Shown here piece after piece: positions 70 through 40,155 of a stretch of DNA of 64,000 nt; position 1 is the stretch's first letter; every line of letters begins with the position of its first letter. The notes beneath the pieces are model-generated. The model did not search any database and was not told the origin of the DNA. It was given only the letters and a program-made list of their open reading frames with translations. Origin of the DNA: Patescibacteria group bacterium (lineage in GTDB: Bacteria; Patescibacteriota; Minisyncoccia; Phycocordibacterales; UBA9973); the NCBI GenBank assembly GCA_038063535.1, contig JBBTUV010000004.1, positions 20,530-84,529 of the forward strand. The letters run 5' to 3'. The translations under genes and the position numbers were made by a program.

Positions 70-672
70 ATGAGTTGCGATACAATTTCTGGACTAAGTG
101 GTGTCATCTGCAGGATCAGCGATGTTCTCGGCGCCCTCCTTCCTTTTCTTGTCGCGCTCGGGGTTATCTACTTTGTTTGGGGAGTAGTCCAGTATTTTAT
201 CGGCGACTCTGACGAGGCGAAGAAGAAGGGGAGAGACCGGATCATATATGGCCTTATCGGCCTTGCGATTATCATTAGCGTCTGGGGGCTTGTCTATATT
301 CTTCAGGATACTTTCGGCTTGACTCAAGATGCGGCTCCGAATGTATCTAATCTAGTTACGACCTCAAGCACGTCCGGCTCCGGCTGTACCCTCCAGTCAA
401 AACTTCAGGGCCTCATAGGCTACGTGATATGCATTATCGGGAGCTCTGTCATACCGCTTATGTTTGCGCTTGCGGTGGTGCTCTTTGTCTGGGGGGCGGT
501 AAAGTACTTCCTGCTCTCCGGGAGCGAGGAACAAAAGAGAAGTGAAGGCAAACAGTTCATGCTCTGGGGTATAATCGCCTTGGCGGTCATGATCTCGATC
601 TGGGGCTTGGTGAAAATTTTGGGCGAAACGTTCAATATCGGTACCAGTACCCTCCCACAAGTGAAGCCCTAG
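70..672 (+). CDS. Small membrane protein with two tandem TrbC/VirB2-like (T4SS-pilin-like) two-helix domains
   Basis: 200 aa. Residues 1-100 and 101-200 are internal repeats, each a hydrophobic helix, a charged loop (GDxxEAKKKGR / SGSEEQKRSEGK) and a second hydrophobic helix ending WGLVxIL. It is homologous to the next two ORFs. Confidence 0.6.
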   Translation: MSCDTISGLSGVICRISDVLGALLPFLVALGVIYFVWGVVQYFIGDSDEAKKKGRDRIIYGLIGLAIIISVWGLVYILQDTFGLTQDAAPNVSNLVTTSSTSGSGCTLQSKLQGLIGYVICIIGSSVIPLMFALAVVLFVWGAVKYFLLSGSEEQKRSEGKQFMLWGIIALAVMISIWGLVKILGETFNIGTSTLPQVKP

Positions 673-699
673 GTTTCCACAGGCCACTATCTTGACGCG

Positions 700-708
700 T
701 GGTATAAT
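700..708 (+). promoter_or_regulatory. Extended -10 promoter element TGgTATAAT upstream of the second pilin-like gene
   Basis: TGGTATAAT sits about 48 nt upstream of the ATG at 757. TTGACG lies immediately upstream but the spacing is non-canonical. Confidence 0.4.
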
Positions 709-756
709 TAAAAGGTTAAAATTAAGGTCGTTTACATTATCAACAACATTATTATT

Positions 757-1134
757 ATGAAAAAGAAACTTTTGACACTGGGTCTTACACTCTCGCCGCT
801 TGCAGCTTTGGCGCAGGTGACCGGCGGAACACCTAGTGTTTGCGGATCGGGTTCGATCCAGACTGTTCAAGACGTTATCTGCAAGTTGAACGAGATTCTG
901 GGCGCAATCCTCCCGTTCCTGGTTGCCGTCGGCGTTATTCTCTTCGTTTGGGGGGTACTTCAATACGTCATCGGCGGCGATGAAGAAGCCAAGAAAAAGG
1001 GCCGAACCAAGATGATCTACGGCATCATCGGTCTTGCGGTCATCATCGCCCTTTGGGGACTGGTGAAGATCTTGACCAATACCTTCGGGCTAAGGAACGT
1101 CCAGAACATTGAATATCCGACCGTACCGTATTAA
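757..1134 (+). CDS. TrbC/VirB2-like (T4SS-pilin-like) small membrane protein with N-terminal signal peptide
   Basis: 125 aa. The N-terminus MKKKLLTLGLTLSPLAALAQV looks like a Sec signal. It is followed by the same ILPFLVAVGVILFVWGVLQY...AKKKGR...IYGIIGLAVIIALWGLVKIL hairpin as the ORF at 70-672. Confidence 0.65.
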   Translation: MKKKLLTLGLTLSPLAALAQVTGGTPSVCGSGSIQTVQDVICKLNEILGAILPFLVAVGVILFVWGVLQYVIGGDEEAKKKGRTKMIYGIIGLAVIIALWGLVKILTNTFGLRNVQNIEYPTVPY

Positions 1135-1136
1135 GC

Positions 1137-1460
1137 GTGAGTAGGTTCGATACATTTCTCGTTAACTTAAACAGGGAGATCATAAATCCTCTGATACTCC
1201 TTCTCTTTGCGCTGGCGGTCGCCATTTTCCTCTTCGGCATGCTTCAGTTTTTCCTAAGCGCGGCGAATGATGAGAAGAAAACTGCCGGCAAGCAGCACAT
1301 GATTTGGGGAGTGATCGGGATGACGATAATGATGGGGGTGTTCTTTATCTTAAACCTGATACTCGGCACGCTGAATATTTCTAAGGGCGAAATAGATCCG
1401 GCTAACCCGGGCGGCGTGAATCTCAAAGAATACACTCCTCCGCCGTTCCCGCCGCAATAA
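1137..1460 (+). CDS. TrbC/VirB2-like (T4SS-pilin-like) paralog, GTG start, no signal peptide
   Basis: 107 aa. The two-helix hairpin (LLLFALAVAIFLFGMLQFF...DEKKTAGKQ...IWGVIGMTIMMGVFFILNLIL) is homologous to the upstream paralogs and the C-tail is proline-rich. It starts 2 nt after the stop of the previous gene. Confidence 0.55.
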   Translation: MSRFDTFLVNLNREIINPLILLLFALAVAIFLFGMLQFFLSAANDEKKTAGKQHMIWGVIGMTIMMGVFFILNLILGTLNISKGEIDPANPGGVNLKEYTPPPFPPQ

Positions 1461-3071: not shown

Positions 3072-3120
3072 CCCGTTTAGAGGCAGAGGGTCGCTGCGAG
3101 CCCTCGCGGCCTCTAACGGG
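3072..3120 (-). terminator. Long imperfect hairpin (CCCGTTTAGAGGC...GCCTCTAACGGG) downstream of the minus-strand gene
   Basis: It has ~12-bp outer arms enclosing an inner GAGGG...CCCTC hairpin, in tandem with the terminator at 3125-3158. Confidence 0.35.
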
Positions 3121-3179: not shown

Positions 3180-3941
3180 TTACGCGTGCTTGAGTGGCGT
3201 GGAGTGATATTTGTTCTCAAGATAGAGCTTGCGCACAACGATCACTACCAGAAGGACGAGTATCGCGAAGATGAGCCACTGGGTAAGCCCCGAAGGCATG
3301 AGTCCGTAGCTGGAGCCGTAGAGCGCGTTTGATACAAGCTGGCTCGAGGTCGGTTCGTTCTCCTGGCTTGCTCCCATCACCTCGCCGTTTTGCACGGTGC
3401 TTGTCGAGCGGGAAGTCGAGACAGAAGGAGCCTGGTAAGCTGAGGTGGAAGTGCCGGAACTTGCGCCGACCACCTCGAAGCGTACTCCGTTCGAGTATCC
3501 ACCGCCGGGGCCGGGATTATATACCGAGACATACTTTTCGTTAGCGCCGTAGAGGTCCCCAGACTGAAGATACATTACCAAGTGCGACGGGTCGATGAAA
3601 GAAGTCGTGCGGTTCAAACCGTTCCAGCGGGCCTGTGATCTCGAAGTGAAGCCGCTGCCGGTGACGTTTACGGTGAGCGAGCTTCCGCTTATATTTGCGG
3701 ACTTGGGACTCAACGAGCTTACGCTTGGGGACGGATTCTCACTGGCGGTTGTTATGACACCAGTGTCCTCATCGGTGTCCGGCTCGTTGTAAGAGCTGTA
3801 ATAACCCCGATTTGCCGCTGCTGCGCTTCGCGGGATGACCGAGAAGGCGAGGCTCACAACCAATCCGATTGCCAAAAGGATCAATATTCCCAAGCTCAAA
3901 TTCCTATTTACGCTATTTAATTTTGCCTTATTTTTACTCAT
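3180..3941 (-). CDS. Predicted surface protein with an Ig-like (IPT/TIG-like) domain and both N- and C-terminal TM helices
   Basis: 253 aa. There is an N-terminal signal-anchor (LGILILLAIGLVVSLAF), a Ser/Thr-rich linker, a ~90-aa beta-rich segment (LTVNVTGSGF...YVSVYNPGPGGGYSNGVRFEV) and a C-terminal TM plus basic tail (LIFAILVLLVVIVVRKLY). Confidence 0.6.
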   Translation of the reverse strand: MSKNKAKLNSVNRNLSLGILILLAIGLVVSLAFSVIPRSAAAANRGYYSSYNEPDTDEDTGVITTASENPSPSVSSLSPKSANISGSSLTVNVTGSGFTSRSQARWNGLNRTTSFIDPSHLVMYLQSGDLYGANEKYVSVYNPGPGGGYSNGVRFEVVGASSGTSTSAYQAPSVSTSRSTSTVQNGEVMGASQENEPTSSQLVSNALYGSSYGLMPSGLTQWLIFAILVLLVVIVVRKLYLENKYHSTPLKHA

Positions 3942-3977
3942 GCTAGTAGTATAGCATATTCCACCTTAAAAGTCAAG

Positions 3978-4061
3978 TGCCGTGGGGGAGATTTGAACTC
4001 CCAAGAGATTACTCTCAATAGCTCCTGAAGCTATCGCGTATACCAATTCCGCCACCACGGC
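3978..4061 (-). tRNA. tRNA-Leu (anticodon CAG), long variable arm, no encoded CCA
   Basis: The cloverleaf was folded manually. The acceptor is GCCGTGG/CCACGGC, the anticodon loop is TTCAGGA and the T-loop is GGGAGTTCAAATCTCCC. Confidence 0.85.
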
Positions 4062-4065
4062 TCTG

Positions 4066-4147
4066 TGGGCGAGAGAGGACTCGAACCTCCAAGTCTTTCG
4101 ACACGTGCTCCTAAGGCACGCGCGTATACCAATTCCGCCACTCGCCC
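4066..4147 (-). tRNA. tRNA-Leu (anticodon TAG), long variable arm
   Basis: The acceptor is GGGCGAG/CTCGCCC, the anticodon stem-loop is CGTGC-CTTAGGA-GCACG and the T-arm is GGTTCGAGTCC. Confidence 0.85.
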
Positions 4148-4151
4148 TCTG

Positions 4152-4224
4152 TCCGCCCTGTAGGATTCGAACCTACGACCTTCTCCTTAAGAGGGAGCAG
4201 CTCTACCAGCTGAGCTAAGGGCGG
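4152..4224 (-). tRNA. tRNA-Lys (anticodon CTT)
   Basis: 73 nt. The acceptor is CCGCCCT/AGGGCGG, the D-arm is GCTCAGCTGGTAGAGC, the anticodon loop is CTCTTAA and the T-arm is GTAGGTTCGAATCCTAC. The anticodon stem carries one G-A mismatch. Confidence 0.75.
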
Positions 4225-4227
4225 ATG

Positions 4228-4309
4228 TGCCCGGGGTGGGCATCGAACCCACATCTCTTGCGAGACACGATCTTAAGTCGTGCGCGTATACCAATTCCGC
4301 CACCCGGGC
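4228..4309 (-). tRNA. tRNA-Leu (anticodon TAA), long variable arm
   Basis: The acceptor is GCCCGGG/CCCGGGC and the anticodon stem-loop is CACGA-CTTAAGA-TCGTG. Confidence 0.85.
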
Positions 4310-4341
4310 AATATTCTTTTTTCGATCTACATTCTTCTCCG

Positions 4342-4416
4342 TGGAGGCCTAGGTGGGAATCGCACCCACGTATAAGAGTTTTGCAGACTCTTGCCTTACT
4401 ACTTGGCGACTAGGCC
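4342..4416 (-). tRNA. tRNA-Cys (anticodon GCA), CCA encoded
   Basis: The acceptor is GGCCTAG/CTAGGCC, the anticodon stem-loop is AGAGT-CTGCAAA-ACTCT and the T-arm is GTGGGTGCGATTCCCAC. It is the only tRNA in the cluster with a genomically encoded CCA. Confidence 0.8.
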
Positions 4417-9009: not shown

Positions 9010-11700
9010 ATGCCTCCCCTTAACCGTTTTACAACCAAAGCGAAAGACGCGATCAAGAAAGCTCACGAGCTGGCGATAGAGCGCGGCCAAAACCACGTCT
9101 CTTCGCTTCATCTCTTGGCAGCGCTCTTGCTCCAGGAAGAGAGCATGGTGAACTCGATTCTCGACAAGATCGAGGTGGATACGATGTTGCTTACCGACAA
9201 CGTGCTTGAGGCGATCGAACTCCCAGAAACCCGCAGCACACTCTCGCCTTCCTATCAGATATATTTGAACCCTGACCTCGCGCAAGTGATCGAGGCAAGC
9301 GCGAAGCTCGCTGAATATCTCAAAGACGATTTTGTTTCGACCGAGCACCTTTTCATCGCGATGCTCGAGGTTCCCGGGGAGGCGAAGGAAACTCTCTCCC
9401 GTCACCGTATCGGCAAAGATGGGGTCATGAAGGTGCTTGAGGAACTTCGCCGCGAGAATGTTACTGATGTCTCTGAGCCGAAACGCTTCCGCCTGCTTTT
9501 AAAATACACCCGCAACCTTACCAAACTTGCGAAAGAAGACAAGCTTGACCCGGTGATCGGCCGCGAAAACGAGATCAGCCGGATCATGCAGATCCTTTCC
9601 CGCCGGACGAAGAACAACCCGATTCTAATCGGAGAAGCCGGCACCGGGAAGACCGCGGTGGTAGAAGGTTTGGCTCAGCGGATCTCGAAAAACAGCGTTC
9701 CGGAGTCGCTACGGGATAAGGAACTTGTTTCTCTTGACCTTGGCTCTTTGATCGCCGGCACGAAGTACCGCGGCGAATTCGAGGAGAGGCTCAAGGGCAT
9801 AATGAAAGAGATCGAACGCGCGGAAGGGAAGGTCATTCTTTTTATCGATGAGATTCACACGATTGTCGGCGCCGGAGGCGCGGAGGGGACACTCGATGCC
9901 TCAAACATGCTCAAACCCGCACTCTCGCGCGGAGAGCTTCGCGCGATCGGGGCGACAACTCTGAAAGAATACCAGCGACACATCGAAAAGGATCCCGCGC
10001 TCGCGCGGCGTTTCCAGCCGGTCTACATCGATGAGCCTTCAGTTGAGGACGCGATTGCGATCCTTCGCGGCCTCAAAGAAAAATATGAGCTGTTTCATGG
10101 AGTCCGTATCACCGATGATAGTATCCTCGCGGCGGTAAATCTCTCCGCGCGTTACATCACCAACCGATTCCTGCCGGACAAAGCGGTGGACTTGATCGAC
10201 GAAGCATCTTCCTCTCTGAAAATTGCGCTCGAGAACAAACCCCCGGTGCTTGAAGACGCCCACCAGCGGATCATGCGTCTGGAGATAGAAAAGGAGGCAC
10301 TGAAAAAAGAAACCGAGAATAAAGAAGCCAGGAAGCGTATAAAGGAGATCGACAAGGAGATCGGAAACCTGAACGAAAAAACAAAAGAGCTCGAGCTCAA
10401 GTGGCAGAACGAGCGCAGGGCGGTGATCGAGATCCGTTCGATCAAGAAGGACCTCGAGACGATGCGCCTGGAGGCCGAGAACGCGGAGGCCCGGGCGGAC
10501 CTCGCGCGCGCAGCAGAGATCCGCTACGGAAAGATCCCGGAAGCGAAGAAAGAACTGGAGACGAAACTTACACGCTTGAAAAAACTGCAAAAGTCGCGCC
10601 GCATCCTCAAAGAAGAAATTACCGCCGAGGATATTGCCGAAGTTGTTTCTCGCTGGACCGGGATACCGCTTACCAAGATGCTGGAGGAAGAGCGGGCGAA
10701 ACTCGAACGGATGGAGGAGGAACTCCGGAAGCGCGTGGTTGGCCAAGATGAGGCGATCAAGCGGGTGGCGGATGTTATTCGCCGCTCCCGCGCGGGCATT
10801 TCCGATCCCTCGCGGCCGATCGGCTCGTTCATATTCTTGGGGCCGACCGGTGTTGGGAAAACAGAGCTTACCAAAGCGCTCGGGCAGTTCATGTTCAACT
10901 CTGACTTAGCCGTCATTCGCGTGGATATGAGTGAGTACATGGAGCGACATAGCATTTCGAAATTAATTGGCTCGCCCCCAGGCTATGTCGGATACGAAGA
11001 AGCGGGTCAGCTGACCGAAGCGGTGCGGCACCGGCCGTATGCAGTTGTCCTTTTCGACGAAGTGGAGAAGGCGCATCCGGAAGTTTTCAATATGCTCCTT
11101 CAGGTGATCGACGAGGGCAGGCTCACCGACGGCAAAGGCCGGGTGGTCAATTTCAAGAACACCATTATTATTCTCACTTCGAACATCGGTTCGCAATTCG
11201 TTGAGAAAATGGAATCGATCGGGTTTTCCAATAATTCGGATATGCAGGATTACGGCCGAACCAAGGAGAAAGTGCTCGAGGCATTGAAGGACCACTTCCG
11301 CCCGGAATTCTTAAACCGACTAGACGAGATCATTGTCTTCGATATTCTCTCGCCTGCGGCGATCAGGGAGATCGTGGATCTGCGCGTTCAAGTGGTGAAA
11401 GACAGGCTCGAGGGCAAAGGCATCGCTTTCAAAATTTCGGAGGAAGCGCTCCTCTTCCTGGCGCAGGCTGGCTATGACCCGCATTACGGCGCGCGGCCCT
11501 TGAATCGCCTGATCCAGAACAAGATATTAAATCCTGTCGCCACTCATATCATCTCAAACGAAGTAAAGAAAGGGGACACGGTAGTGGTTTCCGCTAAAGC
11601 GGGCGAGCTCGTCATCCAAACTCAAAAAGGCGGCCCCGCCAAAGGACGGGCAGGTAGCGTTAAAAGCCCGATCCGCGTCCAGCCGAAATCTTCAGCCTAG
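9010..11700 (+). CDS. clpB: ATP-dependent chaperone ClpB (AAA+; two NBDs, middle coiled-coil domain)
   Basis: It has a Clp N domain, Walker A motifs GEAGTGKT and GPTGVGKT, an M-domain coiled coil, and a short basic C-terminal extension. The start is set at MPPLNRFT; the ORF extends 30 nt further upstream. Confidence 0.95.
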
Positions 11701-11943
11701 AACGTACACCTCCGAGCCTTCTGGAGACTTCTGGGAGAGCTTGACCGCAACCTCTTGGCCCTTCTTACCTGCTTTTATCACCTGATGATCAAGCTGTATT
11801 GACTCCACGGTGTCTTCAAATTCTTGCTCACCGTGCCTGACCATAACTTTGTCTCCCACCCCCAAAGCACCGGAGAGTTTGATTACCCCGACGCTTATTT
11901 TGTCGTACCAGTGGACGACTTTTCCAACCAATTTTTCCGCCAT
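11692..11943 (-). CDS. Small beta-barrel protein (EF-Tu domain-2-like / translation-factor-like small protein)
   Basis: 83 aa with a G-x-V pattern typical of translation-factor beta-barrels. It overlaps the 3' end of clpB convergently by 9 nt. Confidence 0.45.
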
Positions 11944-12011
11944 ATTTTTATCGACGTTTAACTACGACCTTTTTTATAGACTATTACAAACTGCCCAATA
12001 AGTCCAATTTG

Positions 12012-12094
12012 TGCGCCGGGAGGGATTCGAACCCCCGTAGCCCGAAGGCGATTGGTTTACAGCCAATTGCAATTGACCACTCTGCCACCGACGC
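12012..12094 (-). tRNA. tRNA-Tyr (anticodon GTA), long variable arm
   Basis: The acceptor is GCGTCGG/CCGGCGC, the anticodon stem-loop is ATTGG-CTGTAAA-CCAAT, the variable arm is CGCCTTCGGGCTAC and the T-arm is GGGGGTTCGAATCCCTC. Confidence 0.85.
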
Positions 12095-12170
12095 ATGCCT
12101 ATAAAATAACACAAAAAAACCCTTCGCGCATCTTTTTTGTTGTTATTTCTGTAAAATATGTTATTATTTC

Positions 12171-12192
12171 AAAAAGCCCCCGGGCTTTTTTT
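12171..12192. other. A-tract/GC-stem/T-tract hairpin immediately upstream of the typA start codon
   Basis: AAAAAGCCCCCGGGCTTTTTTT ends 2 nt before the ATG at 12195, giving a terminator-like palindrome with flanking A and T runs. Confidence 0.35.
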
Positions 12193-12194
12193 AT

Positions 12195-14006
12195 ATGGAA
12201 ATTAGAAATATAGCTATAATCGCCCATGTGGACCATGGCAAGACCACTCTAACCGATGCTCTAATGAAGCAAAATGGAATACTCTTGGATGAGGGAGTGT
12301 CTATGGACTCAAACGCTCTGGAAAAAGAGCGCGGTATTACTATATATTCCAAAAACACATCAATCTATTACAAGGGTACAAAGATAAACATCGTAGATAC
12401 TCCTGGCCACGCGGATTTCGGAAGCGAAGTGGAACGCGTTTTGCGAGCCATTGATTCGGTACTTCTTTTAGTGGACGCCGTTGAAGGTCCCATGCCTCAA
12501 ACCAGGTTCGTTCTGAAAAAATCTTTAGAGCTGGGACTCCAGCCGATTGTGGTTATAAATAAGATAGACAAGTCAGCTTCAGATCCGCACCGAGTGCACG
12601 ATGAAATTCTGGGATTGTTTTTTGAACTGGGTGCTTCTGAAGAGCAAGCAAATTTTGAGACGATTTATGCTATTGGGCGAGAGGGGAAAGCCTTTAAAAA
12701 TCTTGGTGATACGTCGGCAGACCTGTCTCCACTGCTAGACTTGATTCTAGAAAAAGTTCCACCAGCTTCAAAGAAAGAAAATGAAAAGATGTCGGCACAG
12801 GTTTTCAACTTAGCTTATGACAATTTCCTAGGCAGAATGGCAGTCGCGCGAATTTATTCGGGTCAAATGAAATCCCCCGCCGCTGTTTTTGTGAAGGGCG
12901 AGAAGGGAAGTCGTGCAGGTAAGATCACGAAACTTTTTACCTTCGAGGGAATAAGCAGGAAAGAAGTCGAGAAAGCTTTATCGGGCGACATAGTGCTCTT
13001 GGCTGGTATTCCAGACATATATATCGGTGAGACCATTTGTGAAGATGAAACGGTAGAGGAAATGCCACACATTGCTATCGACGAGCCGACGCTCTCACTC
13101 AATTTTTTGGTTAACGACTCTCCATTTGCTGGTCGGGAAGGAAAGTTTGTAACTTCAAGACAGCTTAAAGAAAGATTAGAAAAAGAACTTGAGATAAATG
13201 TCGGTCTTAGAATCAATTTTTCACCGGATCAGGGTGAAAAAATGGGGCCGAGCTTTTTTAAAGTTTACGGTCGCGGTGAATTACACATTGCTATCCTTCT
13301 CGAAAATATGCGACGCGAAGGATTTGAAATGCAGGTTTCGGAACCAGAAGTAATTATCAAAGAGAATGATGGCGAGCTTGTCGAACCATATGAAGAACTA
13401 GTTATTGACGTACCTGTAGAATCAAGCGGAAGCGTTATTGAAAAAATTGGCAAGCGTAGAGGCATCATGAAAGACATGGTAGAGAAAGAGGGCATAGCTC
13501 GAGTTATTTTTGATATCCCAACTCGCGGACTTCTGGGGTATCGTAGTGAGTTTATCATCGACACCAAAGGGGAAGGTATCATGTCTTCTCGTGTCACTGG
13601 CTTTCGAAAGTACGCAGGGGATATAAATAAGCGCGAATTCGGCTCGATGGTTTCGATGGTGTCCGGCAAGGCAGTCACCTTCTCCCTTGCAAATTTACAA
13701 GAACGTGGTATTATGTATATCGAGCACGGAGCCGAGGTATATGAGGGCATGGTCATAGGGAACGTGTTAAAAGGGGAGGATATGTCAGTAAACCCTACCA
13801 AAGGCAAGCAGCTTACCAACATGCGTGCTTCCGGTACCGATGAGGCTTTGTTTTTAAAGCCTGCTTTTACTTTAAACATAGAAAGGGGCCTAGAAGTTAT
13901 GAATAGAGAAGAATATCTCGAAATCACTCCCGAGTCCGTGAGACTTCGCAAAAAGTACCTCACCGAACTAGATCGGACAAGGCAGGGGAGGCAAAGCAAG
14001 AGATAG
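12195..14006 (+). CDS. typA: Translational GTPase TypA/BipA
   Basis: [11 protein letters not shown] and DTPGHADF are present and the architecture is EF-G-like. 603 aa. Confidence 0.95.
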
Positions 14007-14063: not shown

Positions 14064-15095
14064 ATGGCAAAGGTATCCTTCAAACCCAAGCAAGTCACCA
14101 AAAGAATCACTTCCCATCTTCATGACCGAGCGAACGATGTTATCATGAGCCGCTTCGGTCTCACTCCGGACGCGGTCCGGAAGACTCTCGAGGAGATCGG
14201 CAAGCGTTACAACATTACCCGCGAGCGAGTCCGTCAGATCGAAGACGCGGCCATCGCGCTTATCAAAAAGTCCGAAGCCTACAAACGGGAACAGGTAGCC
14301 TTCGATGAACTCAAAGAGCTGATCGTCTCACTCGGTTCGATCGTCGCCGAGCACGAGTTGCTTTCGCACATAAGCGATGATAAAGCGACCCAGAACCATA
14401 TTCATTTTTATCTTGTCTTGGGCGATACTTTCAAAAAACATCGTGAGGACGAGCATTTTCATGCGCGTTGGAGCGTGAACGACGCGGTGGCGGAGAAAGT
14501 ACACGACGCACTGAAGCGTCTTTATGCCTCCCTCTCGGACGAAGATCTTGTCCCGGAGTCTGAGATGATTAAAAGATTCCTCGAGCATTTGAAGGACGCC
14601 TCGGATCATTATCGGGACGAGGAGATTGCCCGCAGATGGCTGCGTATCTCAAAGACCATCAAGAAGAATCCCTTGGGCGACTGGGGCAAGGCGAGCTCTC
14701 CGAACGTCCACACTCGTGGCGTGAAAGATTACGCGTTCCTGGTGATGCGCAAGCACGGCTCGCCGATGCATTTCCGGGAAGTTGCCGACGCGATCTCGAA
14801 AACTTTCGGGAAGAAGACTCACTACGCCACTTGCCACAACGAACTGATCAAAGACCCGCGCTTCGTCTTGGTGGGGCGGGGGATCTATGCGCTCGCCGAG
14901 TGGGGCTACAAGCCCGGCATCGCTCGCGAAGTCATCAGGGATATCCTCAAGCGCGAAGGTCCGATGAACAAGGACGACGTCATCGAGCGGGTGATGAAAG
15001 AGCGCTACTTCAAGAAAAATACTATTCTCGTCAACCTGGTGAACCCGAAGTATTTCAAGAAAAACAAGAACGGCCTCTATTCGCTCGCCGCATAG
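14064..15095 (+). CDS. DNA-binding protein with an N-terminal sigma-70 region 4 HTH and a C-terminal HARE-HTH-like winged helix
   Basis: The N-terminus has the sigma region 4.2 signature (LEEIGKRYNITRERVRQIEDAAIALIKK). The C-terminal ~90 aa resemble the RpoE-delta N-terminal HARE-HTH (FREVADAISKTF...GRGIYALAEWGY). There are no sigma regions 2 or 3. Confidence 0.65.
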   Translation: MAKVSFKPKQVTKRITSHLHDRANDVIMSRFGLTPDAVRKTLEEIGKRYNITRERVRQIEDAAIALIKKSEAYKREQVAFDELKELIVSLGSIVAEHELLSHISDDKATQNHIHFYLVLGDTFKKHREDEHFHARWSVNDAVAEKVHDALKRLYASLSDEDLVPESEMIKRFLEHLKDASDHYRDEEIARRWLRISKTIKKNPLGDWGKASSPNVHTRGVKDYAFLVMRKHGSPMHFREVADAISKTFGKKTHYATCHNELIKDPRFVLVGRGIYALAEWGYKPGIAREVIRDILKREGPMNKDDVIERVMKERYFKKNTILVNLVNPKYFKKNKNGLYSLAA

Positions 15096-15107
15096 TAAAA
15101 TATAGAA

Positions 15108-15284
15108 ATGCCCATTTTCCCCATAGTTTTCATGCTCTTCGTCCTCCCGTTCCTGATCATCCAGGAGGGGTATAAGATGCTCAAGGGTGCTCTCTCCCGC
15201 CCGGGTTTCGCCAGGAATTTTCTCTATATTTTGGTGCTCTTGCTTGCGCTAGTCGGCATCTCTCTCTTTCTCGCCGGCTTCTAG
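15108..15284 (+). CDS. Possible small two-helix membrane protein (58 aa, below the ORF-track cutoff)
   Basis: This is an ATG-initiated ORF (MPIFPIVFMLFVLPFLIIQEGYKMLKGALSRPGFARNFLYILVLLLALVGISLFLAGF) in the gap between two plus-strand genes. Confidence 0.3.
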   Translation: MPIFPIVFMLFVLPFLIIQEGYKMLKGALSRPGFARNFLYILVLLLALVGISLFLAGF

Positions 15285-15313
15285 ATTTCCTCTTTTTATA
15301 CTAAAATATAGGC

Positions 15314-16666
15314 ATGGACGAGCTTTTTGATTTCCTCGAGCATCATCTCCCCAAGATCCTCCTGGTCGTTATCGTCGCATTCCTTGCCTGGGTGCTTTTC
15401 CGAGCCGAACTTCTTTTTCCGCTTCTGGGTACGATTATCCTCGGCTGGATCGGCTGGAAGGTATGGGTGCATTACGTCCAGCAAGACTTCATCTCCGGCA
15501 TCGAGTGGGTGCTCCTTGAGATAGTGCCACCGCGGGAGGTCATGCGCTCTCCGAAAGCGATGGAGCTTTTTATCACCAACGCTCTCTATCACCTTTCTTT
15601 CAAAGGGGGCAAAGAAGAGTTCTGGCAGGGCGCGGTCTGGTTCTGGCATTCGCTCGAGATCGCTTCGATCGAGGGGCAGGTGCATTTTTATGTCCGCAGT
15701 CCGTCGCGCCTCCGGGGCCTCATTGAAACACAGTTGTACGCGCAGTACCCCCAGGCGCAGGTGCGGGTGGCGGAAGATTACACGCTCGCCGTGCCGGAAA
15801 TTTCCCAAAATAGTGAATGGAACGGCTGGGGTTGTGAATTCAATCTTGTAAAAAGCGAGGCTTACCCGATCAAGACCTACACCGATTTCGGTTTGGACAA
15901 AGATCCCAAAGAAGAATACAAAGTGGACCCGATCTCTCCGGTGATCGAGTTCTTCGGCGCACTCGGCAAGAATGAGCAGGCGTGGCTCCAGTTTGTGATC
16001 AAGCCCGCGGGAGCCACCGGCGGCACGAAACATAAACGGGATTGGGTGAACCAGGCGAACGACACCATGAAAGATTTGCTCCGGCCCTACACTCGTACGC
16101 AAAGAGGCATAGAAGAGGGAGAAACTGCACTCGAGATCCGCGCGCCGAAATTCTACGACAACGTTATCACCGCTATGAACATGAAGACAGGCAAGCTCGG
16201 TTTCGAAACGGGCATCCGGCTCGTCTACGTGGCCAAGAAAGAACACTTCAGCATGAACAATCGCCGCGACATCCGTCTTATTTTCCGCCAATACGCCAAG
16301 CCCGATTGCAACGAGCTCCTGCGCATAAATTCCGCGCAGGCGGACCGCTACAGCGGCGTCTTTTCCGCCTCGCCGAAGACCGTCATGATGCTCGCAAACA
16401 GGATGGTGCATGAATTCCGCGACCGGGCATTCTTTCACCTCCCACTCCGGCACCACATTTTCTCCCAAAAGTATTGGAGCTGGCCCTTTCCGACGTTTAT
16501 CTCCATAGACGGCATCATCAAGGCTTACATTCATCACCATACCTTTATCCTGAACACCGAAGAGCTCGCGACCCTCTGGCATTTCCCGGGCCAGATCCTG
16601 AAAGTCCCGTCCCTCGAGCGCATCGAATCGAAAGAAGCTTCTCCGCCTCCAAACTTGCCGACATGA
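15314..16666 (+). CDS. Hypothetical membrane protein (two N-terminal TM helices plus a ~390-aa soluble domain), family not recognised
   Basis: 450 aa with credible TM helices and protein-like composition. The antisense 462-aa ORF has Arg/His-rich shadow composition. Its stop overlaps the mltG start (ATGA). Confidence 0.65.
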   Translation: MDELFDFLEHHLPKILLVVIVAFLAWVLFRAELLFPLLGTIILGWIGWKVWVHYVQQDFISGIEWVLLEIVPPREVMRSPKAMELFITNALYHLSFKGGKEEFWQGAVWFWHSLEIASIEGQVHFYVRSPSRLRGLIETQLYAQYPQAQVRVAEDYTLAVPEISQNSEWNGWGCEFNLVKSEAYPIKTYTDFGLDKDPKEEYKVDPISPVIEFFGALGKNEQAWLQFVIKPAGATGGTKHKRDWVNQANDTMKDLLRPYTRTQRGIEEGETALEIRAPKFYDNVITAMNMKTGKLGFETGIRLVYVAKKEHFSMNNRRDIRLIFRQYAKPDCNELLRINSAQADRYSGVFSASPKTVMMLANRMVHEFRDRAFFHLPLRHHIFSQKYWSWPFPTFISIDGIIKAYIHHHTFILNTEELATLWHFPGQILKVPSLERIESKEASPPPNLPT

Positions 16667-17544
16667 TTTTTTACCAGAAAGCATTTCCGCTTGCGCTCGG
16701 CGCTGTTTTACTCATCGCGGGCGTGAATTATTTTCTCATCTCTCCGCCCGGCGATTTTCCGGAGGGGCGCATTGTTTCTCTCGAGCAGGGGATGAGCCTG
16801 CGAGCCGTATCGGCCAAGCTCAAAGAGGAAAATTTTATCCGCTCGCGAGTGGCGTTCGAAGCGTTCGTCATCATCTACGCCGGTGAGCGGCATGCCGTCG
16901 CGGCCGATTACTATTTCGAAAAGAAACTGCCGGCTTTTGAAGTTGCGCGCCGGGTCGCATTCGGCAAAAGCGCTCTGGCGCCGATCCGCTTCACCATCCC
17001 CGAGGGCTTCACCAACCAAGAGATCGCCGCCTCCGCCGCGCGCCTGCTCCCGAACTTCGTTCCGGAAATATTTCTCAAGGACGCGAGCGACAAAGAGGGT
17101 TACCTTTTTCCCGACACTTATTTTTTTATTTTCCGCGCAAGTTCGGAGGACGTGCTCGGGGCTCTGGAGAAAAATTATGAGAAGAAAATAGTACCGCTCC
17201 GGCCGGAGATTGCTGAATCCGGGAAAAGTGAAGACTCGATAATCACCATGGCCTCGCTCATCGAGCGCGAGGCCAAAGGCCTCGAGCGCGCTGTAATCTC
17301 GGGAATTTTGTGGAAACGCCTTGCGCTCGGCCGAGCGCTCGAGGTTGATGCTGCGCCGGACACTTACCAAAAGCGGGGTTTGCCGGAAGCCCCCATAGCC
17401 AACCCCGGCCTAGCTTCGATCAAAGCGGCCATCCACCCCGAGAACTCGCCCTATCTTTACTACCTGCACGACTCGGAAGGCAATATTCATTACGCCCGCA
17501 CTTTCGAGGAGCACAAGAAGAATAAAGCGCTGTATTTAAAATAA
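16663..17544 (+). CDS. mltG: Endolytic murein transglycosylase MltG/YceG family
   Basis: There is an N-terminal TM helix and a YceG-like domain (DTYFF, LASIIEREA-like motif SLIEREAKG). The start is set at MIFYQKAF. Confidence 0.85.
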   Translation: MIFYQKAFPLALGAVLLIAGVNYFLISPPGDFPEGRIVSLEQGMSLRAVSAKLKEENFIRSRVAFEAFVIIYAGERHAVAADYYFEKKLPAFEVARRVAFGKSALAPIRFTIPEGFTNQEIAASAARLLPNFVPEIFLKDASDKEGYLFPDTYFFIFRASSEDVLGALEKNYEKKIVPLRPEIAESGKSEDSIITMASLIEREAKGLERAVISGILWKRLALGRALEVDAAPDTYQKRGLPEAPIANPGLASIKAAIHPENSPYLYYLHDSEGNIHYARTFEEHKKNKALYLK

Positions 17545-23684: not shown

Positions 23685-24851
23685 ATGGGAATTTTTTCTC
23701 GCGGGAGTAAAAAGACATTGGCGGCGGTTTTTGACATTGGTTCGTCTTCCGTCGGGGGAGCGCTAGTCGCGCTTTCGAAAGGTAAGGCGCCGGAGATACT
23801 CTTTGCCGCGCGTGAGCCGATACTCGTTCTTCCTGAACTTGACCCGGATCAATTCCTTTCGCTTACCCTGAAATCTCTCGAGGCCGTGGCGGCGGCTGTC
23901 GCGGCCAGTAAAGCAGGAGCACCGGAGAAAATTTTCGCTGTCCTCGGTTCACCCTGGTACAGCTCGCAGACTCGGATGATCCGGATGGAGAAGAACAGCG
24001 AATTTGCTTTTTCCGCGAAGTTGGCGGACGAACTGGTCGCCAAGGAACTTACTCAATTTAGAGAGGAGCACGAGCTCAAATATCTCGCTGACGAGGAAAA
24101 GGTTGTGCCGATCGAACTGAAAAACATGAGGATCGCCTTAAACGGATATGTTACGCCCGAGCCGATCGGCAAACGCGCTTCAAAGCTCGAGATGACGATA
24201 TTCGTTTCAATGAGCGGCCGGCAATTTCTCAACAAAGTGAGAGAAACGATGGGAAAACATTTTCACCGGGACGAGGTTAAGTTCTCGTCTTTCCTTATGG
24301 CGTCTTTCACCGCGGTGCGTGATCTTTATCCAGCTTCGCAGTTTCTCCTCTTAGATGGGGGAGGCGAGCTGACCACGGTTTCGCTCGTGAAAGGGGATAT
24401 TCTCTCCGAGTCGGGCACCTTTGCCATTGGGCACAACTTTATTATCCGGGAAACAGCACGGGAGCTGGGAAAGACCCTTCCCGACGCGAAGACACTTTTC
24501 ATGCTTTTCAAAGAGGGGCATGAGAGCGAACGGCAGAAAGTGAAGCTTGAGAATGCGATCGGCGCAGCGCGGGCCAAATGGCTCGAAGCTTTCCAGAAGT
24601 CGCTTGCCACTCTCTCGGGAGATATCTCCATTCCCTCGGATGTTTATGTGACGGCAGACCCGGACTTCGCCGAATTTTTCGCCGATGCGATCAAGGGCGA
24701 GCAACTCTCGCAGTACACGCTGACCGATTCGAAACTCCAGGTCCATCTCTTCAATCCGGATTCGATCACCGGCAAAATGTCGTTTTCGGCGAACGCCCGG
24801 CATGACCCGATCCTCTCGCTTGAGTCGGTTTATATTAATCGCTATCTTTGA
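23685..24851 (+). CDS. Actin-fold ATPase of the FtsA/PilM family
   Basis: The phosphate-1 motif is AAVFDIGSSSVGGAL and the phosphate-2-like motif is LLLDGGGELTTVSLV. 388 aa. Confidence 0.6.
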   Translation: MGIFSRGSKKTLAAVFDIGSSSVGGALVALSKGKAPEILFAAREPILVLPELDPDQFLSLTLKSLEAVAAAVAASKAGAPEKIFAVLGSPWYSSQTRMIRMEKNSEFAFSAKLADELVAKELTQFREEHELKYLADEEKVVPIELKNMRIALNGYVTPEPIGKRASKLEMTIFVSMSGRQFLNKVRETMGKHFHRDEVKFSSFLMASFTAVRDLYPASQFLLLDGGGELTTVSLVKGDILSESGTFAIGHNFIIRETARELGKTLPDAKTLFMLFKEGHESERQKVKLENAIGAARAKWLEAFQKSLATLSGDISIPSDVYVTADPDFAEFFADAIKGEQLSQYTLTDSKLQVHLFNPDSITGKMSFSANARHDPILSLESVYINRYL

Positions 24852-24863
24852 TAAAATATACCA

Positions 24864-26147
24864 ATGCCTAAAAATTTGCTTCAAGACTTCCGAATGAAAA
24901 AGGGTTCCCCCGAGGAAAAAGCCCCGCCACTCTCTCCGACTCCGCCAGCGAGGAATACGGAAAGCTATGAAAACTATTCCGACTTTTCCTACTCAGGAGA
25001 GGAGCCCGCTCCAGGCAGCCGGTCCAAGTACGGTCTCTGGGTTGTGGCGCTGGTTTCAGTCGGTTTTCTTCTCTTCGCCCTCTCCTTTTTATTTACGAAG
25101 GCGAAAGTCGTAGTTGTTCCGAAAAGCTTCGATGAAAATTTGAGCTTGAACCTTTCTGCGACGAAAGATTCGGCGGATCCCACCGCACTTTCTTACGATT
25201 TGGTAGTGCTTGAGGGCATCGAAGAAAAAAGCGTGGCGGCTGGTACGGAGGAAGATGTCCGCGTGCCTGCGACCGGACGAGTGGTGATTTACAATGCTTT
25301 CAGTACGGCTCCGCAGCTACTGGCGATCGAGACGCGTCTCGAGGGCTCGAATGGGAAAATTTACAAAACCGATACCAAGCTCACAGTCCCTGGCATGAAA
25401 GGAAGCTCCCCGGGCTCGATCGAAGTCGGCGTCTACGCAGCCGAAGCCGGGCCGGATTACAATTCCGAGCCGCTTGATTTTAAGATATTCGGATTCAAAG
25501 GAACACCGAAGTATACGAAGTTCTACGCGCGAGGGAAGGGCGAGATCTCAGGAGGATTCATCGGCAAGCGTACGGTGGTCGCTCCGGCGGACCGCGATCG
25601 GGCGGTAGCTGAGCTCAGGATCGGCCTCCAATCAAAACTTTACAAGAAGGCAGCGGATCAATTGCCCGCCGGATTTATTCTTTTCAAGGGCGCAACGGTG
25701 CTCGATGTGCCTGAATCAGGAATTTCCGCGGAGCCAGACGCGAGCGGTGGAACAACGCTCTCGATCAGGGGCACTCTCTCCGGAGTTCTTTTTGACGAGA
25801 AGAAACTCGCGAAGAAAATTGCGGAGAATACCGTCCCGAAATACAACCAGGAAGATGTTTTTATTCCGAACTTCGGCTTGCTCGACTTTTCCCTGACCGG
25901 ACTTGTCGGGGCGCTGGCGGAAGCGAACAACGTGGTTTTCAATCTCACCGGCCCGGCCAAGATCGTTTATGGGCTAGATCAGAAGAAAATAGCCGAAGAT
26001 CTTGCCGGAAAGGCGAAAAAAGAATACAATGCGATTCTCTCCACTTACCCCGTCGTCTCCGCCGAGCTCGTCCTGCGACCTTTCTGGAAAACCTCTTTCC
26101 CCGAGAAACCGGAAGACATCGAGATCAAGGTGAACTACCCGCAGTAA
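24864..26147 (+). CDS. Bitopic membrane protein (cytoplasmic N-tail, one TM helix, ~340-aa extracytoplasmic domain); partner of the FtsA/PilM-like gene
   Basis: The TM helix is YGLWVVALVSVGFLLFALSFLF. This is the topology expected of FtsQ/PilN/PilO-type partners but larger. No family recognised. Confidence 0.55.
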   Translation: MPKNLLQDFRMKKGSPEEKAPPLSPTPPARNTESYENYSDFSYSGEEPAPGSRSKYGLWVVALVSVGFLLFALSFLFTKAKVVVVPKSFDENLSLNLSATKDSADPTALSYDLVVLEGIEEKSVAAGTEEDVRVPATGRVVIYNAFSTAPQLLAIETRLEGSNGKIYKTDTKLTVPGMKGSSPGSIEVGVYAAEAGPDYNSEPLDFKIFGFKGTPKYTKFYARGKGEISGGFIGKRTVVAPADRDRAVAELRIGLQSKLYKKAADQLPAGFILFKGATVLDVPESGISAEPDASGGTTLSIRGTLSGVLFDEKKLAKKIAENTVPKYNQEDVFIPNFGLLDFSLTGLVGALAEANNVVFNLTGPAKIVYGLDQKKIAEDLAGKAKKEYNAILSTYPVVSAELVLRPFWKTSFPEKPEDIEIKVNYPQ

Positions 26148-30751: not shown

Positions 30752-31511
30752 ATCCAAGAGACCCAAAGCGATCGTGATGTCCGGGTACGGGCTTAATTGC
30801 GAGGAGGAGACGGCGTTCGCATTTGGGCGTGCCGGTGGAGGAGTGGATATTGTGCATATCAATGACTTAATAAAGAAGCCTAAAATGCTCGCAGGTTACG
30901 ATATTCTCGCTTTCCCGGGCGGCTTTGCCTACGGCGACGATACGGGGAGTGGCAAGGCCTATGCGCTCAAATTCAGGAACCATTTGGCGAAGGAGCTAAA
31001 GGCGTTCCTCGCGCGCGACACTCTTATCATCGGCATTTGCAACGGCTTTCAGATAGTCACGAATCTCGGCATTCTCCCCGGCGCGCTTACTTACAATAAA
31101 AATCCTATCTACATGGACAGATGGGTGGATCTCAAGGTTGTCGGAAAGTCCCCGTGGCTTACCGGCATAAAAAATATTTCATTACCGATTGCTCACGGGG
31201 AGGGCAGGTATGTGGTAGGTAGAGGCAAGAAACCATCTGTCGCTTTAAAATATGTTAAAGGAGAGATTTGTAAATTCCAGAGTCTCGAACCGAACCCGAA
31301 CGGCTCGGAGAGTGCGATTGCAGGGGTTCTCGGTTATAATGGAAGAGTGCTCGGCCTTATGCCGCATCCCGAGCGGGCGATGTTTTTCCACCACTCGCCG
31401 CTCTGGCAATTGAAGAAGGAAAAATTAAAAAGGGGAGCCGCGAAAATTCCGGAGGATGGCGACGGAATTCTTTTATTTAAAAACGCAGTAAACTATTTTG
31501 TCGGAGCTTAA
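30735..31511 (+). CDS. purQ: Phosphoribosylformylglycinamidine synthase, glutamine amidotransferase subunit
   Basis: A class-I GATase triad is present (GICNGFQ Cys, HGEGR, MPHPER). Confidence 0.85.
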   Translation: MSTKGKSKRPKAIVMSGYGLNCEEETAFAFGRAGGGVDIVHINDLIKKPKMLAGYDILAFPGGFAYGDDTGSGKAYALKFRNHLAKELKAFLARDTLIIGICNGFQIVTNLGILPGALTYNKNPIYMDRWVDLKVVGKSPWLTGIKNISLPIAHGEGRYVVGRGKKPSVALKYVKGEICKFQSLEPNPNGSESAIAGVLGYNGRVLGLMPHPERAMFFHHSPLWQLKKEKLKRGAAKIPEDGDGILLFKNAVNYFVGA

Positions 31512-32922
31512 AGAAAAATGCGGAATAGTTGGAATTTACGCTCCGGGTCGGCCGGTTTCCCGCCTATGCTTTTTCGGTCTCTTCGCGCTCCAGCACCGTG
31601 GGCAAGAAGCTTCGGGGATTACTACGAATGCGGATGACAAACTGAAAACCCACATCGGGGCGGGTCTCGTAGGGCAAGTTTATAAAGAAGAAGATATTGA
31701 TAATCTCTCTGGCTACATCGGCATCGGGCATAATCGATATTCAACTTCGGGCGGGAGCGTCTTCAAGCACGCCCAGCCAGTTTTAAATGATGACGAAACG
31801 TTCGCTCTGGCTCACAACGGAAATCTCCCGAGCGTTACAGCCCTCAAAGATTTTTTGAAATCCGAGCGAGCGCTCAAGGAGGACAGGAACGACTCGGAAC
31901 TTATCTCGGACGCCGTAGATGTTTATCTCAAGAAGGGAATGCGGCTCGAGGGTGCGGTGGAGAAAGTTTTCCCCCTTCTTACCGGCGCATATGCGCTGGT
32001 GATGATGACGCGTGACACGCTTGTGGCCCTACGCGACCCGTTTGGCATGCGGCCGCTTTGTATGGGAAGTCTAGGTTCTTCAGGGGAAGGTTTTGTGGTC
32101 GCATCGGAGACCTGCGCTCTGAAGACGATCGAGGCCGGCTTTATTCAGGAGATTCTACCCGGTGAGATGGTGGTGATAAACCAGGAAGGACTTAAGTGCC
32201 ACACCCTCGCCCCCGCGACGCCTAAGCATGATATTTTCGAATACGTTTACTTCGCCCGGCCGGATTCCGTGATGAACGGAAAGCTTATATACAGTGTCCG
32301 CAAGGACTTCGGCAAAGCCCTGGCCCGGGAATTTATAAAGAAGCACGGTAAAAAGTTCGAGATAGACGCTGTCGTGCCCGTGCCCGACACTTCCATGCCT
32401 GTGGCGATCGGCTTTTCCGAAGCGAGCGGGATACCGCTCGAGCTTGCGCTCGTCAAGAACCGCTACGTACACCGGACATTTCTCGAGCCGGACCAGGAGT
32501 CGCGCCGTGCGAGCGTTGCCCTCAAGCTCATACCTCAGCCTGAAGTACTCGCAGGCAAACGCATCGCTGTGATAGACGACTCCATCGTGCGCGGCCATAC
32601 TTCAAGGAAATTGGTGCAGAGGCTCTATGAGAACGGCGCCAAAGAAGTGCACCTGGTCATCTCTTCGCCACCGATAAGATATCCGGATTTTTACGGCATC
32701 GACACGCCGAAGCAGACGGAACTGATAGCGGCCGGTAAGACTGTGGAAGAAATGCGGGAATGGCTTGGCGTGACCTCGCTTATGTTTCTCTCGCTCGAAG
32801 GCTTAGTGGAGGGGGTAGGCATACCGAAAGAAAATCTCTGCACCTCGTTTTTCACCGGCGAGTACCCTATAGACTTGAAAGAGCGCAAAAGTGAGGTCAG
32901 CTACGATGTCCCAAAAGATTAA
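31498..32922 (+). CDS. purF: Amidophosphoribosyltransferase
   Basis: An N-terminal nucleophile CGIVG follows the initiator Met, and there are Ntn and PRTase domains (VIDDSIVRGHT). Confidence 0.95.
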   Translation: MSELKEKCGIVGIYAPGRPVSRLCFFGLFALQHRGQEASGITTNADDKLKTHIGAGLVGQVYKEEDIDNLSGYIGIGHNRYSTSGGSVFKHAQPVLNDDETFALAHNGNLPSVTALKDFLKSERALKEDRNDSELISDAVDVYLKKGMRLEGAVEKVFPLLTGAYALVMMTRDTLVALRDPFGMRPLCMGSLGSSGEGFVVASETCALKTIEAGFIQEILPGEMVVINQEGLKCHTLAPATPKHDIFEYVYFARPDSVMNGKLIYSVRKDFGKALAREFIKKHGKKFEIDAVVPVPDTSMPVAIGFSEASGIPLELALVKNRYVHRTFLEPDQESRRASVALKLIPQPEVLAGKRIAVIDDSIVRGHTSRKLVQRLYENGAKEVHLVISSPPIRYPDFYGIDTPKQTELIAAGKTVEEMREWLGVTSLMFLSLEGLVEGVGIPKENLCTSFFTGEYPIDLKERKSEVSYDVPKD

Positions 32923-33438
32923 ATTGGCATTGCTGGTTCACGCAGGAGGAACCCAAACAAACTTGAAAGCGATACAAGAAGCCGTCCAGAAAGAGCGGGT
33001 CAATGCCGAAATTGCCGCCGTAGTTTCGGACGCGGAAGCTGTCTTGCCTGCGCTCACAGAAGCATCGCCCGACTATATCTGCCTGGCGGGGTGGAAAAAA
33101 ATTATTCCCGATGAATTAGTCCAAAAATATCAGAATCGAATTTTGAATATTCATCCGGGTTTAATTCCGGATAAAATGGACGGGCAAGTCTTGAATCCCG
33201 ACGGGACGTATGCTCTCTGGAACAAAGGCATGTATGGCGAGAGAGCGATCCAGAATTTTCTCGACAAGAAAGCAACCTATGCTGGCTCCTCAATCCATTT
33301 TTTGACTACAGAATTTGATTTCGGGCCAGTCCTAGGCAGAACATTTGAGAAAATTGAAGAGGGAGACACGGTAGAAACTTTGTATACTCGTCTGAAGAAA
33401 AAAGAAAATGAATTGTATGTAGAGGTGCTGGAAAAATT

Positions 33439-33451
<13 letters not shown>
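32906..33451 (+). CDS. purN: Phosphoribosylglycinamide formyltransferase
   Basis: The formyltransferase motif ILNIHPGLIP is present. The start is set at MSQKIKLALL. Confidence 0.85.
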
Positions 33452-38688
<5,237 letters not shown>

Positions 38689-38689
38689 T

Positions 38690-40138: not shown

Positions 40139-40155
40139 TATGGTAGGATATTTTC

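Follow-up and report, generated by a model that had tools for sequence, protein, structure and literature searches.

A six-gene array of VirB2-like pilins with a fused two-domain member in a Patescibacterial genome

A six-gene array cut by the edge of the window

What do three consecutive small genes encode when one of them carries the same hairpin domain twice, and which system could such proteins serve? The genes open the window that we analyzed, a 64,000-nucleotide stretch of contig JBBTUV010000004.1 from a Patescibacteria group bacterium (assembly GCA_038063535.1), a Nomurabacteria-type member of class Paceibacteria. A sequence-only reading had described them as an array of three VirB2/TrbC-like paralogs, one of them an unusual in-frame fusion. 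Our analysis recovered all three open reading frames (ORFs) on the + strand where that reading had placed them, and found them to be the last genes of a longer array. We consider it probable that these genes, here g4, g5 and g6, are genes 4 to 6 of a six-gene chromosomal array of Patescibacterial VirB2-like pilins serving a type IV secretion system (T4SS) encoded elsewhere in the genome. The window contains the following parts of the array (aa, amino acids):

1 to 57, + strand: 3' end of g3, the last 18 codons and the stop, translating to LRYSPGAPYPYELRELLP before the stop codon
70 to 672, + strand: g4, ATG start, 200 aa, an ORF call for a fused two-domain pilin-like protein (PF18895, 68.2 bits in two stretches)
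70 to 369, + strand: g4 domain D1, residues 1-100 (PF18895, 39.3 bits when scanned alone)
370 to 669, + strand: g4 domain D2, residues 101-200 (PF18895, 40.1 bits when scanned alone)
757 to 1134, + strand: g5, ATG start, 125 aa, a Sec-like signal peptide and one hairpin of the D1 class (PF18895, 39.5 bits)
1137 to 1460, + strand: g6, GTG start, 107 aa, one hairpin and a Pro-rich C-terminal tail, without signal peptide or Cys pair (PF18895, 28.7 bits)

The rest of the array was found on a contig that extends the window upstream (L001) and that is identical to it at 3120 of 3120 shared bases. The start of the window cuts the array: g1, g2 and g3 lie directly upstream on L001, outside the window save for the end of g3. 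The three genes of the earlier description are thus real, and the array they belong to has six consecutive genes and seven domains, in the order g1-g2-g3-g4(D1~D2)-g5-g6. On L001, g1 has 119 aa and g2 109-122 aa, and g3 (9671-9988, 105 aa) is a single-domain pilin of the class of D1 and g5, scoring 40.6 bits on PF18895.

Assignment to the VirB2-like pilins

The proteins were compared with three family models at their curated gathering cut-offs: PF18895 (T4SS_pilin, 26.6 bits), PF04956 (TrbC/VirB2, 27.9 bits) and NF045849 (40 bits). All of g4, g5 and g6 exceed the PF18895 cut-off (68.2, 39.5 and 28.7 bits), and each half of g4 does so by itself, in agreement with the proposal that the first gene of the window holds two copies of the domain. 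Across the array, g2 is the only gene not above this cut-off (25.3-26.2 bits). It was in g2 that we found the match to the classical family: at E<=1e-3, 72 of the 77 orthologs of g2 have a PF04956 match (best E 9e-9), and the copy of the organism studied here scores 26.7 bits (E 6.5e-6), just below the cut-off. By sequence, the g2 class is therefore a bridge from the array to the classical TrbC/VirB2 pilins. The VirB2/TrbC-like assignment made earlier holds through PF18895 for g4-g6 and through PF04956 for the orthologs of g2; it does not hold through PF04956 for g4-g6 themselves. On the NCBIfam model NF045849, g4 reaches 43.9 bits, a score summed over its two domains, and g5 (33.5) and g6 (26.6) fall under the cut-off. 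Taken as a statement of sequence homology, the family membership of the array proteins is solid.

Type IV pilus (T4P) pilins were considered as another identity and ruled out, as neither g4, g5 nor g6 has a class III signal with the G/(F,M)TLIE site; two transmembrane (TM) helices per domain and the lack of any T4P Pfam match also speak against it.

Two-helix hairpins and their predicted topology

The two-helix hairpin that had been read from the sequence was borne out both by hydropathy, with four TM segments in g4 and two each in g5 and g6, and by the secondary structure of an AlphaFold2 model of g4. The model, built from an alignment of 101 orthologs, has long helices at residues 9-44, 48-81, 112-148 and 154-187, with a mean predicted local distance difference test score (pLDDT) of 75 and a predicted template modelling score of 0.49. 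The linker between the two domains (residues 92-102) is disordered in it (pLDDT < 50); it is rich in Ser and Thr and follows TM2 of D1. In structure searches, the pilin fold was not separable from any other helical hairpin.

Along the chain, D1 consists of a Cys pair (C3/C14), TM1, the basic loop GDSDEAKKKGRDR, TM2 and the linker, in that order, and D2 of a Cys pair (C106/C121), TM3, the loop SGSEEQKRSEGKQ, TM4 and a C-terminal LPQVKP. Short charged loops join the helices in every hairpin of the window (GDSDEAKKKGRDR, SGSEEQKRSEGKQ, GGDEEAKKKGRTK and AANDEKKTAGKQ). In D2, residues C106 and C121 and, within the C-terminal LPxVxP, P196, V198 and P200 are conserved in at least 90% of the 101 orthologs. 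A Cys pair (C-x6-14-C) stands in the predicted external segment just before the first TM helix in the domains of g1 to g5 (in the window at 76-111, 385-432 and 838-885) and is absent from g6; such a conserved pair could serve as a disulfide staple or as a processing signal.

Inspection of g4 showed Lys and Arg gathered in the two inter-helix loops, and the N-terminal tail, linker and C-terminal tail neutral or acidic. Because of this concentration of basic residues in the loops, a topology with both termini outside would fit the positive-inside rule. The earlier reading had also assigned a signal peptide to the second gene and not to the third. Inspection and a heuristic agree: g5 opens with the Sec-like MKKKLLTLGLTLSPLAALAQ, and g4 and g6 do not open with such a sequence. 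Among the fused orthologs of g4, about three quarters keep a Sec-like signal peptide, and the window g4 and about 17 others start at the mature domain.

Distribution and origin of the fused pilin

We next asked how common the fusion of g4 is. For this, ORFs were called in the best 80 species-representative loci and five others, and each pilin domain was given its best-matching class. The D1~D2 fusion is present in 64 of the 80 species-representative loci, and 69 fused ORFs were counted over the 85 loci. In the same slot, a stand-alone gene of the D2 type is found in the 16 loci that are most distant (L073, L075 and L077-L090). Searching 5.8 billion proteins yielded 893 matches to g4; the best 120 of them have lengths of 187-350 aa and align over at least 91% of the query with identities of 46-79%, and several of these 120, from Nomurabacteria or Paceibacterota, are named "pilin" by NCBI. 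Relatives of 300-350 aa are mostly triple-domain proteins (D1~D1~D2), one exception being P0083, which has a Cys-rich C-terminal extension instead. A HMMER scan of 1.84 billion cluster representatives found 7808 family members at E<=1e-3, many with two domains and others with a single domain matching D1 only or D2 only. At least 540 stretches among contigs taken from one genome per species encode a relative of g4. Such recurrence goes well past what chance would give. Given these numbers, and the existence of triple forms, the view that a fused double pilin is unusual did not survive for this lineage.

The same data bear on the possibility that the fusion is an artefact, that is, that misassembly, a sequencing error or a recent pseudogenising read-through joined adjacent genes. 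Adjacent single-domain genes of both classes do exist in relatives, and the window g4 lacks the signal peptide present in most orthologs. However, 13 contigs carry the exact 200-aa protein, and they come from several groundwater samples (from Hainich H41 and elsewhere) and represent independent samples and assemblers; fused ORFs recur across the loci as counted above, with the linker and both domains conserved in the 101 aligned orthologs; and about a quarter of the orthologs lack the signal peptide too. We regard an artefact as hardly credible.

A recent internal duplication of g4 was also ruled out, as its halves are 37% identical and its first half is 58-59% identical to g3 and g5. From the distribution of the fusion across loci, and not from a dated phylogeny, the most economical history starts from an ancestral array g1-g2-D2-g5-g6, in which a g5-like copy (D1) came to lie ahead of D2 and was joined with it in frame. 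More copies of the D1 type would then have been added, sometimes by fusion: g3 is an additional, separate D1-type copy in about 20 loci, and in L008 there is no separate g3 and g4 is a triple-domain protein of 340 aa.

A different kind of extension was found in g1. In nine related species this protein has 306-435 aa, with the hairpin at the C-terminus and an N-terminal extracellular extension of 200-330 aa before it (L056 6260-7564, L088 1644-2906, L069 1857-3095, L078 1470-2519 and five others). The extension contains a TSP_1 domain in L069 and has a weak DUF5018-like match in L056, which suggests that the extended g1 may be an adhesin-decorated pilin.

Five pilin classes in a fixed order

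Identity between the paralogs of the array ranges from 14 to 59%. D1, g3 and g5 are close to each other (D1-g3 59%, D1-g5 58%, g5-g3 58%), D2 is 37-38% identical to D1, g3 or g5 (37% to D1), g6 is 32% identical to D2, and g1 and g2 are 14-23% identical to each other and to all remaining domains. Profiles of the classes built from about 85 loci are nevertheless all homologous (HHalign probability 93.7-99.9%; 99.7% for g6 against the D2 class), and group into two supergroups, {D1/g3/g5, D2, g6} and {g1, g2}. With paralogs at most 59% identical and the nearest orthologs 66-79% identical, both are too diverged for synonymous divergence (dS) among the paralogs to be meaningful.

Across loci, five ancient orthologous classes follow one another in a fixed order: g1, g2, D2, g5, g6. 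An ortholog of g5 was at the same position in all loci with enough sequence, and g6 is the conserved last gene. Within a class, the identity of the best hit in other loci to the window copy is mostly 45-75%, compared to 14-38% between classes in its own array. Because the order is fixed and similarity is higher across species than between classes, this pattern argues for classes with distinct, non-redundant structural roles, as opposed to interchangeable antigenic variants.

The contrary proposal, that the paralogs form a variation cassette of interchangeable major pilins used for host adaptation or to evade recognition, has been put forward for arrays of this kind (PMC12102498). It could draw on the strong divergence of the paralogs and on differences between species in how many copies of the D1/g3 and D2 classes they carry. 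The constancy of the class positions over about 85 loci, the higher similarity across species than between classes, and the fixed D1~D2 fusion, which implies that both domains are used jointly, make us consider it quite unlikely here.

Genomic context and the secretion machinery

If the array encodes pilins, where is the machinery that would use them? The locus is not inside a T4SS operon with virB3 and virB4; its neighbours are GyrA, a methyltransferase, a solute-binding protein (SBP) and a Band_7 protein. The synteny GyrA-methyltransferase-SBP-pilin array was found in about 85 loci from Nomurabacteria and Paceibacteria genomes, in every locus with enough flank. A 142-aa protein and the Band_7 protein lie downstream of the array on the opposite strand, and the lineage shares one gene order across the wider region (Mur ligases, GyrA, methyltransferase, SBP, array, IF2, ClpB). 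The sequence-only reading had reported no VirB4 or VirD4 in the window, and our scans of the window ORFs concur: among those of at least 300 aa we found neither these ATPases nor T4P machinery, only housekeeping or unassigned proteins (ClpB, TypA, AlaRS, PBP2, the purine pathway, DnaB, tRNA synthetases and others). The sole unassigned ORF of VirB4 size is Cys-rich and matches no P-loop family.

Several results weigh against the interpretation as T4SS pilins. In this organism, where the search covered the window and about 10 kb upstream of the array, no T4SS gene was found within those 10 kb or in the 62 kb downstream of the array, and in a relative with a 598-kb contig the 19 kb upstream hold housekeeping genes only and no T4SS gene. 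At the level of the proteins, g4, g5 and g6 have no PF04956 match at E<=1; a profile of the seven domains searched against all PDB sequences returned no solved pilin, just transmembrane noise from G-protein-coupled receptors at E>=0.066; and inspection and the heuristic found no signal peptides in g3, g4 and g6. We also found no report in the literature of a visualised Patescibacterial T4SS pilus.

The distance from virB4 is in line with what has been described for the phylum. Of 1948 assemblies, pilins lie near virB4 in 1135 and away from it in 813; VirB4 occurs in 2417 of 3035 Patescibacteria genomes, and in Paceibacteria virB4 is usually near dnaA (PMC12102498). Table S1 of the same study lists 13 Nomurabacteria assemblies with the same syntenic array as here, and 11 of the 13 are VirB4-positive, the two negative ones being drafts of about 550 kb.

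The closest neighbour of the array could suggest another role. A membrane-anchored SBP_bac_1/SBP_bac_8 protein of 431 aa (L001 7603-8898) lies directly before g1, and at the same position in L007-L091; its stop overlaps the start of g1 by 4 bases in L001 and L009. The array proteins might accordingly be small membrane proteins acting with this orphan SBP in a receptor or uptake module, pilins by homology only and never polymerised outside the cell. For this speaks the presence of the SBP directly before g1 in every locus with enough flank, the 4-base overlap, and the lack of any ATP-binding cassette (ABC) permease or ATPase within 10 kb of the SBP and of any T4SS gene nearby. On the other hand, because the whole region is collinear in every recovered locus, a functional link of SBP and pilins is not separable from synteny, and the adjacency is non-specific: GyrA and the methyltransferase are no less closely spaced. 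Moreover, g2 matches canonical TrbC/VirB2, and homologous arrays in Saccharimonadia are inside T4SS clusters and essential there (PMC10633639). We judge an SBP module unlikely, and retain VirB2-like pilins of a T4SS encoded elsewhere as the probable identity of the array.

Other features of the region

Two further elements of the array were predicted in the window:

731 to 758, + strand: promoter-like site, TTTACA-16-TATTAT (10 of 12 matches), in the 84-bp spacer between g4 and g5, weak evidence
1477 to 1506, both strands: terminator-like hairpin, a 13-bp stem with 6 GC pairs followed by a T-run, 17 bases past the g6 stop

Four promoter-like sites were found against 1.9 expected, and the site in the g4-g5 spacer is not significant by itself. 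The terminator-like hairpin closes the array and is common to it and the convergent downstream gene.

Near the array, the minus strand encodes at 3180-3941 a 253-aa protein that runs from an N-terminal TM segment through an IPT/TIG domain and a Ser/Thr-rich region to a C-terminal TM anchor. It probably is a surface protein, and relatives keep it close to the array (TIG matches in L003 and L007). Five tRNA genes follow at 3977-4416, minus strand (Leu-CAG, Leu-TAG, Lys-CTT, Leu-TAA and Cys-GCA), with gaps of 2-32 bases. Mobile or accessory insertions were seen at the edges of the array locus in two relatives: L007 carries a Fic/RhuM gene and an rve integrase past the end of the array (11907-12893 and 14707-15654), and in L091 a Y1 transposase separates GyrA from the methyltransferase (16094-16720). 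In L011, L013, L016, L018, L020, L025, L028, L029, L039, L067 and L086 the contig with the array begins about 19-23 kb upstream of g4, and this recurrence over independent assemblies suggests a repeated break in assembly there, for instance at a repeat or variable region.

Farther along the window, adjacent ORFs of 388 aa and 427 aa (23685-26147) have no Pfam match. The 427-aa protein has a single TM segment, and the N-terminus of the 388-aa one, FDIGSSSVGG, resembles by eye the phosphate-binding motif of actin-like ATPases of the FtsA/PilM type. The two may form a divergent pair for division or pilus assembly. A near-contiguous cluster for purine de novo synthesis and interconversion lies at 31498-43994: a PurF-like amidotransferase, PurD, PurA, GuaB, GuaA, PurH, PurM, PurC and PurB. 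It is notable since the usual description of Patescibacteria is that they lack nucleotide biosynthesis. Finally, a very Cys-rich 578-aa ORF at 60891-62627, without Pfam match, has many CxxC pairs at both ends, resembling zinc ribbons.

Comparison with known systems

Tandem arrays of Patescibacterial pilins are already published (PMC12102498; PMC10633639; reviewed in PMC12857230), with arrays of 2-11 VirB2-like genes in 383 Patescibacteria assemblies (PMC12102498), and the array as such is therefore not new. The arrays of Quinonero-Coronel et al. 2025 (PMC12102498) share with the one studied here the detection by PF18895, the tandem arrangement, the divergence (about 25% identity on average), the chromosomal location, often apart from virB4, and the occurrence in Paceibacteria. 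In its searched text, that study makes no mention of fused pilins, of a fixed class order or of the GyrA-methyltransferase-SBP context. It proposes host-range versatility as the role of the arrays; for the array studied here, by contrast, the constant order of the classes speaks for distinct structural roles.

Similarly, Ca. Southlakia epibionticum ML1, a monoderm member of the candidate phyla radiation, has one array of about six VirB2-like pilins that resemble each other in structure and diverge in sequence (Wang et al. 2023, PMC10633639; six according to PMC12857230). That series is part of the T4SS cluster SEML1_0006-0019, and transposon sequencing showed it to be essential (PMC10633639). 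The array described here has no T4SS gene within about 10 kb upstream (19 kb in a relative) or 62 kb downstream and, unlike that of Southlakia, includes one two-domain fused subunit.

The canonical TrbC/VirB2 proteins (Agrobacterium VirB2, RP4 TrbC) resemble the array proteins: they are small hairpins of two TM helices that follow a signal peptide and are joined by a short loop in the cytoplasm. In contrast, the canonical systems have one major pilin gene within the T4SS operon, and here multiple genes lie outside one; the host here is a monoderm, and we have no evidence for cyclisation or acetylation. Monoderm T4SSs are normally without pilins (PMC12857230). Tandem amplification and divergence of virB2 are also known from Bartonella and Anaplasma phagocytophilum. 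Those arrays belong to pathogens of eukaryotes and are read as antigenic or host-interaction variation, whereas here the class order is conserved across species. The NF045849 Mbov_0395 family, from integrative and conjugative elements (ICEs) of Mycoplasma, is likewise a small pilin-like protein with two TM helices in a monoderm conjugation system of the MPF-FATA type; the present locus differs in that it is not in an ICE and that its single-domain genes are below the family cut-off. To our knowledge, no monoderm T4SSs other than those of Patescibacteria have pilin genes, and in the single model in cultivation these systems are required for growth on the host.

Fused multi-domain pilins of the VirB2 type were not described in any paper that our literature search found. 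Public databases hold hundreds of them labelled "pilin". What is new here is modest: hetero-tandem pilins joined covalently in one chain, and classes that keep a fixed order.

Discussion

We propose that each domain of the array forms a two-helix membrane hairpin with its termini facing outward and its short basic loop in the cytoplasm, and that the array proteins would be inserted by Sec/YidC. A VirB4-type, MPF-FATA-like T4SS encoded elsewhere in the genome would then extract the subunits and polymerise them into a pilus or conduit for the epibiotic lifestyle; both the assembly into a pilus and the dependence on a T4SS are inferred from homology and genome context. In g4, a flexible, Ser/Thr-rich external linker would join D1 to D2, and the fusion would force a 1:1 stoichiometry and the adjacency of the two domains. 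The covalently dimeric pilus subunit suggested by the sequence-only reading is plausible on these grounds.

This topology would also account for the variety of forms seen in relatives. Because both ends of a hairpin would be external, an added hairpin or extracellular domain would be topologically neutral, which could explain the double and triple fusions, the extended g1 variants and the C-terminally extended P0083 alike. Since g1 orthologs bear extracellular extensions, including TSP_1, the N-terminus would be a tolerated, outward-facing fusion point.

A more specific and tentative possibility, which we think doubtful at present, is that D1~D2 and D1~D1~D2 act as covalently linked protomers in a heteropolymeric filament or conduit of the VirB2 type, built from five role-distinct classes (comparable to major, minor and tip subunits) and encoded away from its T4SS. 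If this were true, it would be the first heteromeric, tandem-subunit T4SS pilus. Its locus, translationally coupled to an orphan SBP, would hint at the capture of nutrients from the host, and some species would decorate g1 with adhesin-like extracellular domains.

The gain in knowledge is incremental, as such systems are in the literature and the database entries for these proteins already carry the name pilin. The fusion, the constant class order and the conserved locus apart from T4SS genes are nevertheless useful clues to what the arrays build. Within that frame, evolution appears to have repeatedly joined two or three pilin classes into one chain. The class pattern, together with this welding of two or three domains, predicts a heteromeric assembly with defined neighbours, and such loci provide naturally linked dimers and trimers in a single chain that could be used in structure prediction or electron cryomicroscopy. 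Fixed, non-interchangeable classes across a large lineage of Paceibacteria argue against a purely variation-based reading of Patescibacterial pilin arrays.

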